Shown here: positions 48,253-60,964 of the stretch, piece after piece | Layout of the letters: the number at the start of each line of letters is the position of its first letter | Numbering within the stretch: the first letter of the stretch is position 1 | NCBI RefSeq assembly: GCF_003334785.1 | Contig: NZ_QOWV01000002.1 | Source of the DNA: Escherichia coli | Lineage (GTDB): Bacteria; Pseudomonadota; Gammaproteobacteria; Enterobacterales; Enterobacteriaceae | Length of the DNA stretch: 64,000 nucleotides | Strand: one strand, 5' to 3' | Program-made: the position numbers and the translations under genes | Notes under the pieces: model-generated | Seen by the model: only the letters and a program-made list of their open reading frames with translations | Told to the model about the DNA's origin: nothing | The model's database searches: none

Positions 48253-50265
48253 TTACAACACCTCGCGAACCGAGATCCCCAGCCGCTGCATTCGTGACAG
48301 CAGCGTGGTGCGCTTCATCCCTAATCGCGTCGCTGCGCCACGGGGCCCGGCAACAATGCCATTGGTTTCTCGCAATACCTGAACAATGCGCTGACGTTCT
48401 TCTTCGTCATTCTCTGGCGTCGTCGGGTGCAGTAACTGCGCCATTGAACTGCGAAGCGCTGAATCTTCATTTAGCGTCGGCAGTAAACGGCTTTGTCGGA
48501 CATTTAGATGTAAATTCAGACTGTTACCACGAGTCAACAGTACCGCCCGCTCAATCACGTTTTCCAGCTCGCGCACGTTGCCCGGCCAATCCCACGACAT
48601 CAACTGGCGTAGTGCCTCGGTCGGGATGGCGTCAATTGCGCGATTCATATGGCGCGCCATTTTTTGCGTGAAATGTTTTGCTAAAAGAGGGATATCTTCC
48701 GGACGGTCGCGTAGCGGCGGCAATTCCAGTGGGAAGACATTCAGGCGATAAAAGAGATCGCTGCGAAACTGGCGATCTTCAACCATTTGCCACAAATCAC
48801 GGTTGGTGGCGGCAATGACTCTGACATTCACCGGGATCGTTCTACTCCCGCCGAGACGCTCAATCTCCCGCTCCTGCAATACGCGCAGCAGTTTAGGCTG
48901 AAGTTCTAACGGCAGATCGCCAATTTCATCGAGAAACAACGTGCCGCCATCGGCAATTTCAAAACGACCACGATGGGTATTAATCGCACCAGTAAACGCC
49001 CCTTTGTCATGACCGAATAACTCACTTTCCAGAAGACTGGCGGGGATGGCAGCGCAGTTGATTTTGACCAGCGGCTTGTCGCGTCGCGGGCTAAGTTGAT
49101 GGATCGCTCTGGCGATCACCTCTTTGCCAGTTCCGGTTTCACCACAAATCAACACCGTACTGTCGCTCTTCGCCACAATATCTACCTGCTGGAGCAGGTC
49201 TTCCATTGCCTGGCTTTGATAGATAATGTCACCGATGCCCAGATTCGAAAGGAGCTGCTCGCTAAGCTGGTGGTTTTCTTGCTGCAAACTTTCCTGCAAA
49301 TCGGTCATGCTACGCCAGGCATCGGCATTGCCAACGGCAATAGCGATGCGATCGGCTATGTGTTGTAGTAGCTGGCAGTTTTCCTCACTAAAGAGAGTGG
49401 AAGAGGTATGCGCCAGCAACAATGCACCCGGTGTATGGTTGCCAAAGGTAAGCGGTATAAGGAGCGCAGATTCGCAGCCGTTAGATGCAAGTAAGAGTAA
49501 TAACGGGTCGCGTTGCCAGAGAAACAGATCATCTGCACGGTGCGTCAAGGTCGGTTGTCGGGTTTGTAGCGTTTGTGTCAGCAATACACTTTCGCCAGGC
49601 ATACAGCGTGGCAGACACGCACAATGTGAGGCAGAAAGATCGCTGCACCACAGGCTGAACTTCTCGTTCTTTCGATGATCGCCCAGTACCATACTGACTG
49701 AAGCCAGACCGAAAAAATGATGGATCTCACGAGCGACGTCAGCGATCAGATCGTCGAGATCAAGATGTGACAGCACTGCATTAGTAATATCAACCAGTAC
49801 CCGATGATGATCGCGATCTTTCTCCAGCAAACGCAGCGCCACCTGCTGTTCTTCATCATTGAGCCATGATTGCAGAACCGGGGTGATTATCCGCGCCAGC
49901 CAGTTAAACAGTGTGCAATCCTGGGAAGTAAAACGACTGCCGTGGGTGCGAATAAAGCGTAGCTCCGCCATTCCACTACTGCCGAGAAGGACGGCGTGAC
50001 GCGAATAATCGACCATCTCGCCCTGATACTCTGTTGTTGCCGTCACATCGCTGCCATCATCATGGTAGCGGTAATAGAAGTTGCTTTTGAGAACATGCAG
50101 TTCAATAAGTTGTACCGGGCTGAACGGCGGCGGCAGCGGGATGAAGGCGCGTAATAAAGACGCCTTGCCGTGTTTCTGTGCTAACCGCTCCGCGAGCATT
50201 CCGTTTACCGCTTCAATTGTTATTCCTTGTGGCGGGGCAAACATCGCCTCGTCTGACATAGCCAT
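48253..50265 (-). CDS. hyfR: sigma54-dependent transcriptional activator HyfR (FhlA paralogue)
   Basis: ORF of 670/671 aa (two adjacent Met codons); AAA+ sigma54-interaction domain with GETGTGKE and GAFTGA motifs; C-terminal HTH. Confidence 0.93.
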
Positions 50266-50294
50266 CAACAGTCCTTATTAATGAGAAATCCTTC

Positions 50295-58328: not shown

Positions 58329-60347
58329 TTAGACGGCAATAGCGATTAGCAGCACAACCAGTGCGGCGACCACATACAGGCAATAGAGACGAAAGTCGCC
58401 GCTTTGCAGATGCTGTATTTCTTTGGCCAGCCGTTGGGTGGCGCTCACGATGGGGCGGATCACCCGCTCATCCCAGAAGGGTTCTGTGCTCTGAGCCCTG
58501 GCGGTGACGTGCGCAAGACCTTTATTTAGCCTCAGCGTAGGGTCGAGCTGTTGTCGTAGACGAAATAGCGCAGAAAAGACCACACGCAGCGGCTGCATCA
58601 CGCCATTGCCTGACGGGGCCATCGCATTTTCCCAGCCGTAGCCGCATGCCCAGGCATCTCCTGTGCGACGAAACGCTGCGCGGCGCGAACGACACCACAG
58701 CCAGTAAAGGCCAGGCAGCAAAGGCATCGCCAGTAGTAACAGCAACAGTAATGAGGGGGTGACCTGTGTATGAAACGTGCCGGGTACAAGTGCTATTCCG
58801 CTGGCGACAGTGGCGGGAGGGGTATTGGTAAACGCATGGGCAATATGCATTATCTTCGGTGCCAGCCAACTGGCACTAAGCGCAATTAATACGCAGAGTG
58901 CCGCGAGCAGTAGCATGGCGACGATCATCGTATTTGGCACTTCCTGTGCCTCTTCAGCGTGTGTACTGCGCGGCGCACCACAGAAAGTAATACCGTACAT
59001 TTTTACGAAGCACATTACTGCCAGCCCACCAGTGACTGCCAGCATTACCATAGCAATAGGACCCGCAAGTTGTAGCGCTACGGCTTCCACACGACTTAGT
59101 GAGAACAGCGACTGCCAGGTGTACCATTCGCTGATAAAACCATTCAGCGGAGGAATGGCTGATATCGCGAGGCAACCAATCAGGCATGCTGCGGCTGTCC
59201 ACGGCATCCGTTTCGCTAGTGCCCCCATTTTTTCCATGTCGTGGGTATGCAAACGCGAAATAATCGCTCCCGCGCCGAGAAATAGCAGCCCTTTGAACAG
59301 CGCATGGTTGAGCAGATGAAACAGTGCGCCGAGCAGTCCAACCACGGTGAGCAGCGGGTCGTGCAGTGACAGACCGACCATCGCCACACCGACTGCCAGC
59401 AAAATAATGCCGACGTTTTCGACGGTACTCCAGGCCAGCAGCCGTTTGATATCCTGTTCCGCCAGCGCATATAGCACGCCCAGGAGCGCGGAGATTGCGC
59501 CGATCGCCATCACCAGAATGCCCCACCACAGAGGCAAACCCGTTTGCGCCAGCAGATCCATCGCTACTTTCAGGATGCCGAAAATACCTATTTTGACCAT
59601 TACGCCAGACATCAACGCCGAAGCGTGCGATGGTGCGGCAGGGTGAGCGCGCGGCAACCAGCTGTGCAACGGCATCATCCCGGCTTTCGCGCCAAAACCG
59701 AAAAAGGCCAGCAGGAACACCGCCGACGCCAGCCCCGGAGAAAGTGAAAGCGTGCGGAAACTGGCAAAATCGAGGCTGCCGCTTTCGCGCCCCATCAGCA
59801 AGAAGGCGATCATTATCAGCACCGATCCGGCGTGGGCGATAAAAAAGTAGAGCATGCCAGCGTTGATCGACGTTTTATCCTGCCTGGCAATGACCAGAAA
59901 CCAGGAAGACAGCGACATCATTTCAAACAGCACGATGAACCAAAAAGCGTTGTCCATCACCAGCAGGGCAACCATCGATGCGATGAAAATATTCATAAAG
60001 AAGCCCATCGCCGCCGCGCCTTTGCCCTCGTATTCGCGCATATAAGTCAATGAATAGAGAGAACAAACCACCACCAGCAAGGAGATAACCAGCACCATAA
60101 ATGCCGAGAGGCTATCCATTCGCAGGGTTAAATCGGCAAATTCAAAAGGGGTGGCAAAACGGGCGACTAAAGTTACACCAGCATGTAATTGCGTAATTCC
60201 GCTGATGATGCCAATCACGCCGCCCACCAGCGATGTGATGCCGGAAAGCTTAATAGCCAGTCTGTCCAGACCGAGTAAAAACAGCGAAGCCAGACTAGCA
60301 AACAGATAGAGAATCAGCGACCAGGTTAATAATTGCAGGGCATCCAT
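58329..60347 (-). CDS. hyfB: hydrogenase-4 membrane subunit HyfB (NuoL-like)
   Basis: 672-aa polytopic ORF. Confidence 0.93.
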   Translation of the reverse strand: MDALQLLTWSLILYLFASLASLFLLGLDRLAIKLSGITSLVGGVIGIISGITQLHAGVTLVARFATPFEFADLTLRMDSLSAFMVLVISLLVVVCSLYSLTYMREYEGKGAAAMGFFMNIFIASMVALLVMDNAFWFIVLFEMMSLSSWFLVIARQDKTSINAGMLYFFIAHAGSVLIMIAFLLMGRESGSLDFASFRTLSLSPGLASAVFLLAFFGFGAKAGMMPLHSWLPRAHPAAPSHASALMSGVMVKIGIFGILKVAMDLLAQTGLPLWWGILVMAIGAISALLGVLYALAEQDIKRLLAWSTVENVGIILLAVGVAMVGLSLHDPLLTVVGLLGALFHLLNHALFKGLLFLGAGAIISRLHTHDMEKMGALAKRMPWTAAACLIGCLAISAIPPLNGFISEWYTWQSLFSLSRVEAVALQLAGPIAMVMLAVTGGLAVMCFVKMYGITFCGAPRSTHAEEAQEVPNTMIVAMLLLAALCVLIALSASWLAPKIMHIAHAFTNTPPATVASGIALVPGTFHTQVTPSLLLLLLLAMPLLPGLYWLWCRSRRAAFRRTGDAWACGYGWENAMAPSGNGVMQPLRVVFSALFRLRQQLDPTLRLNKGLAHVTARAQSTEPFWDERVIRPIVSATQRLAKEIQHLQSGDFRLYCLYVVAALVVLLIAIAV

Positions 60348-60964
60348 TAGCGTTGCTCCTGAGTGAGGGAAAGGGGATCCTCCCCGCCATTGGCAAACCA
60401 GCTTGCGGCAAGGCGCTGTTTTTCTTTCATCTGACGTTGCAGGCTATCACCGGTGATCAGCCGTAACGCCTGATTCGGGCAAGCGCGAACGCAGGCCGGA
60501 CCTTCTGGCAAGAAATCACACAGGTCGCATTTCACCGCGACGGTCTGGACACCAGGTTCCCAGCGCAGCAAAGCATGTTGTGTTGGCGCGTTTTCTTCGC
60601 CGTCTTTGAGTGAGCCTTCAGCCTGAAAAACATATTGCGCATGGGCATTCACCGGACGGCTTCCTGAAGCGCTGATTGCGCCAAATGGGCAGACCACGGC
60701 GCAAAGCTTGCAGCCAATACAGAGGCTTTCGTTGAGTTGGATCGCATCATCCCTCTGAGAGATGGCATTGACCGGGCAGACCTGCAGGCAAGGGGCTTCC
60801 TCACAGTGATGACACACGACAGGGGCAGTGATTGTTGACGTCTTCGCCAGGGCCAGGCGCGGGTGTTGCTGTAAACCTTGCGTTTTATGCACGTCCGAAC
60901 AGGCAGCGAGACAGGTATTACATCCTGTACACCACAGTGGTTCGGCCACCACAAAGCGGTTCAT
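60347..60964 (-). CDS. hyfA: hydrogenase-4 Fe-S subunit HyfA (4x[4Fe-4S] ferredoxin-like)
   Basis: Track ORF 60347-61003 trimmed to MNRFVVAEPLWCTGCNTCLAAC..., 205 aa. Confidence 0.92.
   Translation of the reverse strand: MNRFVVAEPLWCTGCNTCLAACSDVHKTQGLQQHPRLALAKTSTITAPVVCHHCEEAPCLQVCPVNAISQRDDAIQLNESLCIGCKLCAVVCPFGAISASGSRPVNAHAQYVFQAEGSLKDGEENAPTQHALLRWEPGVQTVAVKCDLCDFLPEGPACVRACPNQALRLITGDSLQRQMKEKQRLAASWFANGGEDPLSLTQEQR

Follow-up and report, generated by a model that had tools for sequence, protein, structure and literature searches.

The hydrogenase-4 (hyf) operon of Escherichia coli is itself textbook knowledge, and the novelty of the present analysis lies in a deletion within one of its genes. 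In a 64,000-nt stretch of an E. coli contig (NZ_QOWV01000002.1; "the window" hereafter denotes this whole stretch), hyfG, the gene for the [NiFe] large subunit, is a derived in-frame deletion allele that lacks 48 nt. K-12 MG1655 carries the same allele, which means that 25 years of work on hydrogenase-4 (Hyd-4) rest on a K-12 reference whose catalytic subunit has itself suffered a natural deletion. The encoded Hyd-4 is probably catalytically dead, badly impaired or misfolded. A bolder proposal, which we put forward only tentatively, is that the 48-bp deletion may be the main reason why no laboratory strain of E. coli has ever been shown to have an active Hyd-4, or formate hydrogenlyase-2 (FHL-2), in which case a repaired hyfG, or a natural full-length one in an otherwise intact operon such as that of MRSN346638 or strain 3150, would with adequate expression give an active FHL-2.

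A 48-nt gap in hyfG flanked by direct repeats

Window HyfG aligns end to end with HycE (7z0s_E), the corresponding subunit of formate hydrogenlyase-1 (FHL-1), with a single 16-residue gap in HyfG. The same gap is found in alignments with MbhL of the Pyrococcus membrane-bound hydrogenase (MBH; 6cfw_L) and with Thermus Nqo4 (2fug_4), where it lies opposite GxxGPxxRxSG / LRASG, and the Pfam Complex1_49kDa match in the window protein extends over 152 residues versus 168 model positions. Within E. coli, hyfG of O157:H7 SS17 has a length of 1716 nt (571 aa) and differs from the window gene at 17 substituted sites besides a single gap of 48 nt. In the long allele the sequence is CAAATC-[GCCCGTGATT]-ATAGCCCTGTAGGGCCGCTGATCCGCGGCAGTGGTTTT-[GCCCGTGATT]-TGCGC, with two perfect copies of a 10-bp repeat that are 38 bp apart, of which the window retains a lone copy at the junction. 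A gap flanked by repeats in this way is what a deletion between short direct repeats leaves behind, the 48 nt having been removed by misalignment or recombination between the two perfect copies of GCCCGTGATT.

At the protein level, 26 residues of full-length HyfG are replaced by 10 at the junction, and the 16 residues that are gone from the window protein are YSPVGPLIRGSGFARD of the 571-aa form. Within the lost segment lie a near-invariant motif, SPVGPxxRxSG, and the arginine that corresponds to HycE Arg395 (NDUFS2 Arg297). An earlier note on this DNA, made from the sequence letters, had described the operon as complete, which holds for gene content and open frames but not for hyfG, which lacks 48 nt found in other E. 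coli as well as in all the other species that were compared.

Ancestry, frequency and age of the deletion allele

The ancestral state was assessed by a scan that took one genome per species with HyfE, a subunit specific to FHL-2, and yielded 80 hyf loci from Citrobacter, Kosakonia, Trabulsiella, Proteus, Providencia, Morganella, Pectobacterium, Dickeya, Yersinia, Shewanella, Paludibacterium and others. A hyfG gene downstream of hyfE/hyfF covers the region of the segment in 76 of these 80 loci, and all 76 retain it, with the consensus [YFH]S[PN]VGP[LMV][IV]R[GA]SG[FYH]xRD; conversely, the 48-nt deletion occurs in none of the 76 other-species hyfG genes beside hyfE/hyfF. Nine of the 16 segment positions are invariant in an alignment of 40 sequences, and the genera that keep the segment include Trabulsiella, Proteus and Pectobacterium, in which FHL-2 has been studied experimentally. 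As the segment is kept throughout the other species, it is close to certain that the short allele is derived and confined to part of E. coli. No Escherichia locus was returned by the one-genome-per-species HyfE scan (the best was Citrobacter, 86%), the E. coli representative being assumed to lack hyf. Klebsiella sp. BIGb0407 and an uncultured Cedecea have a HyfE relative of 66–67% identity and no hyfG match at E <= 1e-20 within the retrieved locus, so the architecture there may be rearranged or different.

Allele frequencies were obtained with a 181-nt query across the gap, run against all complete E. coli genomes. The deletion allele (match of at least 95%) is carried by 2115 of the 4295 hyfG-bearing genomes (~49%), including K-12, BL21 and O103:H2. 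The full-length allele, which aligns over 229 nt with 48 extra, accounts for ~2180 (~51%), including O157:H7 and IAI39; this figure is what remains of 2619 records in the 60–80% identity band after subtraction of ~439 partial matches that concern only hycE in hyf-less genomes. A reciprocal search with the long allele gave a similar split of ~50/50, so that about half of the hyf-bearing E. coli still have an undeleted hyfG.

When the 48 nt were restored in silico to the window gene, many natural genomes proved to be a single mismatch away in 1716 nt. The nearest full-length allele is that of ECCTRSRTH03, which shows zero substitutions relative to the window over ~4.8 kb (55118 to 50300, from the hyfF 3' end to hyfJ), the 48 nt aside. 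The ECCTRSRTH03 gene has a GAT to GAA change (D388E) in the upstream repeat copy that makes the repeat imperfect, and an exact perfect-repeat precursor on the K-12 haplotype was found in none of the complete E. coli genomes. We infer that the hyfG lesion is recent. Residue D388 is otherwise invariant, and D388E is carried by many near-matching full-length genomes.

The sampled deletion alleles have one common core haplotype, and a single origin followed by recombination is the simplest reading of their spread. The deletion may instead have arisen recurrently, as 9 flanking hyfG sites distinguish the O103:H2 allele from the window; these lie outside a 570-nt identical tract around the junction.

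Predicted consequence for the catalytic subunit

A putative proton-transfer pathway has been described in HycE that involves His284, Glu437 and Arg395 and leads up to the canopy residues, Arg478 and Asp529, where it ends; FHL, MBH, soluble hydrogenases and complex I all have this conserved His/Glu/Arg pathway (NDUFS2 H186/E339/R297) (PMC9474812). Counterparts of HycE D192, E193, C241, C244, S283, H284, E437, R478, D529, C531, C534 and R537 all exist in window HyfG, which also has both CxxC motifs, the Asp/Glu of the beta1-beta2 loop, the canopy Arg/Asp and a C-terminal peptide with a 32-residue tail after DPCYSCTDR. The only mapped catalytic residue that is missing is the counterpart of R395, in the place of which the full-length allele has R397. 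Of the proton pathway and its GPxxRxSG motif, the window protein thus keeps the H284 and E437 equivalents, while the R395 equivalent and 15 neighbours are gone. The lost arginine would belong to a conserved proton path that reaches the [NiFe] canopy residues, in a segment that appears to be invariant across the enzyme superfamily, and it is the loss of both that leads to the prediction of a dead, impaired or misfolded Hyd-4. The deletion would then be a genetic reason why Hyd-4 activity goes unseen in K-12-type strains even when expression is forced, adding to the weak transcription and to the fact that the operon has no protease of its own.

The remainder of the gene is well conserved. In comparisons of the window with IAI39 and O157, which are between-lineage comparisons, the ratio of non-synonymous to synonymous differences (pN/pS) is 0.04–0.05 for hyfG versus 0.105–0.109 for the whole operon, so that the operon does not show the values near 1 that characterise relaxed selection.

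Several points weigh against an inactive HyfG. We infer the functional effect from conservation and from the pathway proposed in one structure paper, and the frame, the four Ni-Fe cysteines, the canopy Arg/Asp and the C-terminal peptide of the window protein are all intact. AlphaFold2 models of full-length and deleted HyfG, built from alignments of 40–41 sequences, are too poor to reveal any structural effect of the deletion, with a mean predicted local distance difference test (pLDDT) score of 64 and 61, respectively, and values <50 in the catalytic core. An allele frequency of ~49% means that the deletion is not strongly counter-selected, as is expected if hyf is dispensable, and the deletion may be a symptom of an earlier functional loss rather than its cause. 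The groups of Trchounian and Sawers, moreover, report hyfG-dependent changes in H2 and proton flux in BW25113, which has the deletion allele (PMC10758574), and regard stationary-phase FHL-2 as active (PMC10758574, PMC11841067).

Published phenotypes and alternative explanations

Lindenstrauss and Pinske see a "long-standing mystery" in the fact that FHL-2 of E. coli is inactive, and ask "what deficiencies" prevent activity (bioRxiv 10.1101/563510). The earlier note took the operon to be largely silent in K-12, in agreement with PMC7654741 and PMC7384014, poor native hyf expression being documented (cited in PMC7384014). In attributing inactivity to expression and trans-acting genes only, however, it missed the deletion allele and is at odds with experiments in which expression was forced. 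None of 15 engineered K-12 strains, in which the hyf promoter was exchanged for Phyc or PT5, the C-terminal peptide of HyfG was exchanged for that of HycE, or HycI or HyfK was supplied in trans, showed Hyd-4 H2 (Finney et al. 2020, PMC7654741). Since forced expression, the exchange of the peptide and extra protease all left the strains without H2, expression and processing are insufficient to explain the inactivity. Finney et al. left the cause open, stating that the protease level "is not the sole factor", and their alignment spans only the last 93 HyfG residues, downstream of the deletion (PMC7654741). The K-12 background, on the other hand, is permissive, as FHL-2 of Trabulsiella guamensis is functional in E. 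coli with the host FdhF (bioRxiv 10.1101/563510) and HycI is able to mature Hyd-4 of Pectobacterium atrosepticum (PMC7654741). No mention of a deletion, length polymorphism or pseudogene status of E. coli hyfG was found in open-access full texts; the subscription literature lay outside this coverage, and prior notice there is possible.

Several explanations other than a decisive deletion have to be weighed. The operon might be complete and potentially functional, being quiet because of poor sigma54 activation and its dependence on fdhF, hyp and hycI elsewhere, with the loss of 16 residues tolerated. This would accord with the twelve open reading frames (ORFs), the intact metal-ligand motifs, the commonness of the deletion allele and the poor native expression on record (cited in PMC7384014), as well as with the report that K-12 hyfG knock-outs alter H2 and proton fluxes (PMC10758574). 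We nevertheless consider it improbable, as K-12 strains with strong promoters are still devoid of Hyd-4 H2 (PMC7654741), the lost segment includes the HycE R395 equivalent and is present in 76/76 other-species hyfG genes as well as conserved out to complex I, and hyfG is otherwise under strong purifying selection. Alternatively, the deletion could be damaging but secondary, the function or selective value of Hyd-4 having already been lost in most E. coli through FHL-1 redundancy, weak regulation or the absence of hyfK; the 48-bp loss would then be one neutral decay event among many, and repair alone would be insufficient in K-12. We regard this as possible though doubtful. Independent lesions do segregate in the species (hyfD in 992/4289 genomes; also hyfB, hyfC, hyfI, hyfH, hyfA, hyfR and an IS421 insertion; see below), lesion-free strains amount to only 2/15, and ~21% of genomes have no hyf. 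The deletion is, however, the only detectable lesion in the window and in K-12, an operon-wide pN/pS of ~0.1 shows that the genes were maintained until recently, and the host is permissive, as both T. guamensis FHL-2 with host FdhF and the maturation of P. atrosepticum Hyd-4 by HycI attest.

Finally, the membrane arm HyfB–F might assemble and affect proton/potassium flux and the coupling to the F-ATPase while HyfG turns over no H2. The membrane subunits are intact and conserved, and the phenotypes of hyfG mutants are mostly shifts in sensitivity to N,N'-dicyclohexylcarbodiimide (DCCD) and in osmotic response, whereas in the same BW25113 data H2 production is absent from hycE mutants (PMC10758574); a non-catalytic role would reconcile the hyf phenotypes on record with an active-site subunit that is crippled. 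Such a role is purely inferential, however, the hyfG deletion behind the phenotypes may be polar on hyfH-focB, and low native expression speaks against much complex being formed, so that we give it little credence.

Returning to the deletion as the main cause of inactivity, a defined 48-bp lesion turns the puzzle into a one-construct experiment. Natural E. coli isolates with a full-length hyfG may possess a complex-I-like formate hydrogenlyase that works and possibly conserves energy, and physiological claims derived from K-12 hyf mutants need re-reading.

Probable decay of hyf across E. coli

A search with a 13.2-kb query (48000–61200) located the hyf region in 4302 of the 5426 complete genomes of E. 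coli, in every case on the chromosome, while ~1124 (~21%) are without the operon. A survey of 15 E. coli strains revealed further lesions, several of which are common to independent assemblies and hence real. The most frequent of those counted is a frameshift in hyfD, where a run of six G is shortened to five (window 57266, codon ~30; the window keeps G6) and HyfD is truncated after ~35 residues. It was seen in BL21/C43(DE3), O103:H2, H5, AR_0061 and NCTC11476, and the exact 62-nt frameshift allele occurs in 992 of 4289 hyf-bearing complete genomes. As it is found with both hyfG alleles, the lesions have been shuffled by recombination.

Single-nucleotide losses affect hyfB (window 59757) in 4 strains, hyfC (window 58029) in 2 and hyfI (window 51112) in 2. 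BL21 and O103:H2 have lost 6 nt of hyfH (window 51871) inside the first CxxCxxCxxxC Fe-S motif, O157:H7 SS17 has lost 2 nt of hyfA (window 60753), and hyfR of IAI39 has a stop at codon 317. In ML35 and three others among the ten best matches, the insertion sequence IS421 (IS4-family, 1349 bp) interrupts hyfA at its 3' end, upstream of hyfB (window ~60385); apart from it, these genomes match the window at 100% identity. Only two of the 15 strains, MRSN346638 and strain 3150, are lesion-free with a full-length hyfG and twelve open genes. In the window lineage and in K-12 the hyfG deletion is the sole visible lesion: the window has no disrupted frames but has lost residues that are invariant in orthologues (9 positions).

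The segregating lesions, the ~21% of genomes without hyf and the low pN/pS together point to a function that was formerly maintained in E. coli and has recently been lost, lineage by lineage. FHL-1 (hyc) would do the job while hyf decays species-wide, and hyf would represent a well-annotated, open-frame operon caught in the midst of this decay.

Comparison with related systems

The window operon is practically indistinguishable from hyf of K-12 MG1655 (b2481-b2492), with which it shares genes, order, starts, overlaps and the hyfG deletion allele. The 12 genes differ by 4 nt and 3 aa (HyfB P66T, HyfF T44I, FocB I195V), and the window DNA is therefore from a close relative of K-12 and not from MG1655 itself. 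The E. coli strains with a full-length hyfG (O157:H7 SS17, IAI39, MRSN346638, 3150) have the same 12 genes in the same bcp-yfgO locus at 97–99.9% DNA identity; unlike the window, they encode a HyfG of 571 aa with YSPVGPLIRGSGFARD, and many strains of this full-length type bear other lesions instead.

The active FHL-2 systems of P. atrosepticum and T. guamensis (PMC7384014; bioRxiv 10.1101/563510) have a hyfA-J architecture with HyfD/E/F like that of the window, and window HyfE is 63–74% identical to congeneric or same-species loci. Their operons include the protease HyfK and a full-length HyfG, and H2 is evolved, whereas in the window a protease gene is absent, hyfR-focB follows downstream and HyfG is the deleted form. 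A HycI/HyfK-like protease gene (E < 1e-10) was detected in 54 of the 80 other-species hyf loci, and was not detected in those of the clade closest to E. coli hyf, comprising Citrobacter, Kosakonia, Phytobacter, Klebsiella indica and Trabulsiella. The last case is odd, as hyfK has been reported from T. guamensis; it may be situated outside the retrieved stretch or be too diverged.

FHL-1 of E. coli (hyc; 7Z0S, 7Z0T, PMC9474812) has a paralogous soluble arm (identity of HyfG/HycE 72%, HyfH/HycF 44% and HyfJ/HycH 49%; for HyfA/HycB, HyfC/HycD and HyfI/HycG see Table 1). Unlike hyf, hyc includes genes for HycI and HycA and specifies no more than two membrane subunits, and HycE keeps residues 387–402 including R395. 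Homology extends to complex I (Nuo/Nqo) and Pyrococcus MBH, HyfB/D/F corresponding to NuoL/M/N, HyfC to NuoH, the HyfE C-terminus to NuoK, HyfG to NuoC-D, HyfH to NuoI and HyfI to NuoB. These enzymes act on other substrates, yet their 49-kDa/MbhL subunits all keep the GxxxRxSG motif that is missing from window HyfG.

Operon content and layout

According to the ORF map, the 12 ORFs hyfA-B-C-D-E-F-G-H-I-J-hyfR-focB are co-directional on the minus strand, from ~61000 down to 47383 (Table 1), and comparison with K-12 MG1655 confirmed that all frames are open and free of internal stops. The annotation of an identical RefSeq record gives the order bcp / hyfA-J-hyfR-focB / yfgO, and the 13.2-kb query matches several E. 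coli chromosomes with a hyfA-hyfR-focB annotation at 100% identity. The earlier note had counted twelve co-directional genes, rightly so, but placed them all in 48253–60964, a range from the hyfR stop to the hyfA start that holds 11, with focB outside; it also left the strand unstated and HyfE undescribed.

Table 1. Features of the hyf region in the window (all on the minus strand)
Feature	Position	Strand	Description
hyfA	60347..60964	-	205-aa ferredoxin-type subunit, 16 Cys; HycB paralogue, 50% identity
hyfB	58329..60347	-	672-aa NuoL/M/N-type antiporter-like membrane subunit; NF005086 977 bits vs cut-off 667
hyfC	57371..58318	-	315-aa NuoH/HycD-like membrane subunit; NuoH models top; 52% identity to HycD
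hyfD	55915..57354	-	479-aa antiporter-like subunit, FHL-2-specific; NF005097 811 bits vs cut-off 430; intact here
hyfE	55253..55903	-	216-aa FHL-2-specific membrane subunit; NF008556 369 bits vs cut-off 136
hyfF	53668..55248	-	526-aa antiporter-like subunit, FHL-2-specific; NF005041 1175 bits vs cut-off 951
hyfG	52011..53678	-	[NiFe] large subunit, NuoC-NuoD fusion type; 555-aa K-12-type deletion allele, GTG start
hyfH	51456..52001	-	181-aa 2x[4Fe-4S] NuoI/HycF-like subunit; NF006076 362 bits vs cut-off 270
hyfI	50701..51459	-	252-aa NuoB/HycG-like small subunit; NF005012 121.6 bits vs cut-off 116; 63% identity to HycG
hyfJ	50295..50708	-	137-aa HycH-family maturation/assembly protein; NF011664 208 bits vs cut-off 145
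hyfR	48253..50265	-	670-aa sigma54-dependent FhlA-like activator; FhlA best match, 642 bits
focB	47383..48231	-	282-aa formate channel, twelfth gene; NF007261 648 bits vs cut-off 499
hyfG deletion junction	52514..52523	-	lone remaining copy of the 10-bp repeat GCCCGTGATT; alignment to hyfG of O157:H7 SS17, ECCTRSRTH03 and IAI39
Putative sigma54-type -24/-12 element	61006..61021	-	TGGCAT-N5-ATGCA; pattern match, ~42 nt 5' of the hyfA ATG
Candidate CRP-like palindrome	61148..61161	-	GTGATCAAGATCAC; read off the sequence, ~135 bp upstream of the putative sigma54 element

The assignments of hyfA-J, hyfR and focB in the earlier note are borne out by NCBIfam and Pfam searches and by PMC7654741 and PMC7384014. 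HyfB, D, E, F, H and FocB score above the curated cut-offs of their own NCBIfam equivalog models, while HyfJ passes the HycH and HyfI the NuoB subfamily model. HyfA has HydN/AegA-type polyferredoxins as top matches, HyfG is a fusion of Complex1_30kDa and NiFeSe_Hases/Complex1_49kDa (Pfam), and HyfH has two CxxCxxCxxxC motifs. HyfB, D and F match NuoL/M/N and Mrp A/D models with E-values of 1e-50 to 1e-77, and residues 127–216 of HyfE match Pfam Oxidored_q2, which makes its C-terminal half NuoK/ND4L-like. NuoL/M/N-, NuoH- and NuoK-like subunits, as found in a complex-I-like antiporter module, thus occur within one operon together with the additional membrane subunits HyfD, HyfE and HyfF that are specific to FHL-2 by their equivalog scores, and on these family matches the operon is assigned to FHL-2 with a complex-I-like membrane arm of five subunits. 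HyfR matches FhlA best, and also NifA- and NorR-type sigma54 activators; because its 642 bits remain below the FhlA equivalog cut-off of 830, it is classified as an FhlA paralogue.

The overlaps given in the earlier note are exact with the RefSeq starts (hyfA/B 1 nt, hyfF/G 11 nt, hyfH/I 4 nt, hyfI/J 8 nt), the value for hyfF/G following from the GTG start of hyfG. A longer hyfG from an in-frame ATG at 53723 (570 aa) was rejected, as the alignment to the HycE N-terminus begins at GTG-proximal residues. The remaining hyf junctions are gaps of 4–29 nt. At hyfB/C, hyfC/D, hyfD/E and hyfG/H, the sequence TAAGGA(G) merges the stop codon into the Shine-Dalgarno of the next gene, a further form of tight coupling that was absent from the list in the earlier note. 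Its statement that the cluster contains neither a formate dehydrogenase nor an endopeptidase gene also stands, as there is no FdhF-like protein among the 12 operon products and a tblastn search with HycI over the whole window found no HycI-like gene (best E = 0.49).

Upstream region of hyfA

At the sequence level, a predicted -24/-12 promoter element precedes hyfA, which is consistent with the sigma54 activator HyfR being encoded in the same operon. The pattern TGGCAT-N5-ATGCA is not enriched in the window (22 matches versus 16.6 expected), so it is the position that carries the argument. A longer hyfA (ATG at 61003, 218 aa) was rejected because it would start inside the putative sigma54 element and without a Shine-Dalgarno, whereas AGGAG is located 6 nt 5' of the ATG at 60964. 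An Rfam scan of 46000–63000 found no RNA families. The CRP consensus is TGTGA-N6-TCACA, to which the candidate palindrome GTGATCAAGATCAC further upstream is near by resemblance only. Between the -12 element and the Shine-Dalgarno lies an inverted repeat, ATGAAA-N7-TTTCAT (60985–61003, minus strand), which is a candidate regulator site.

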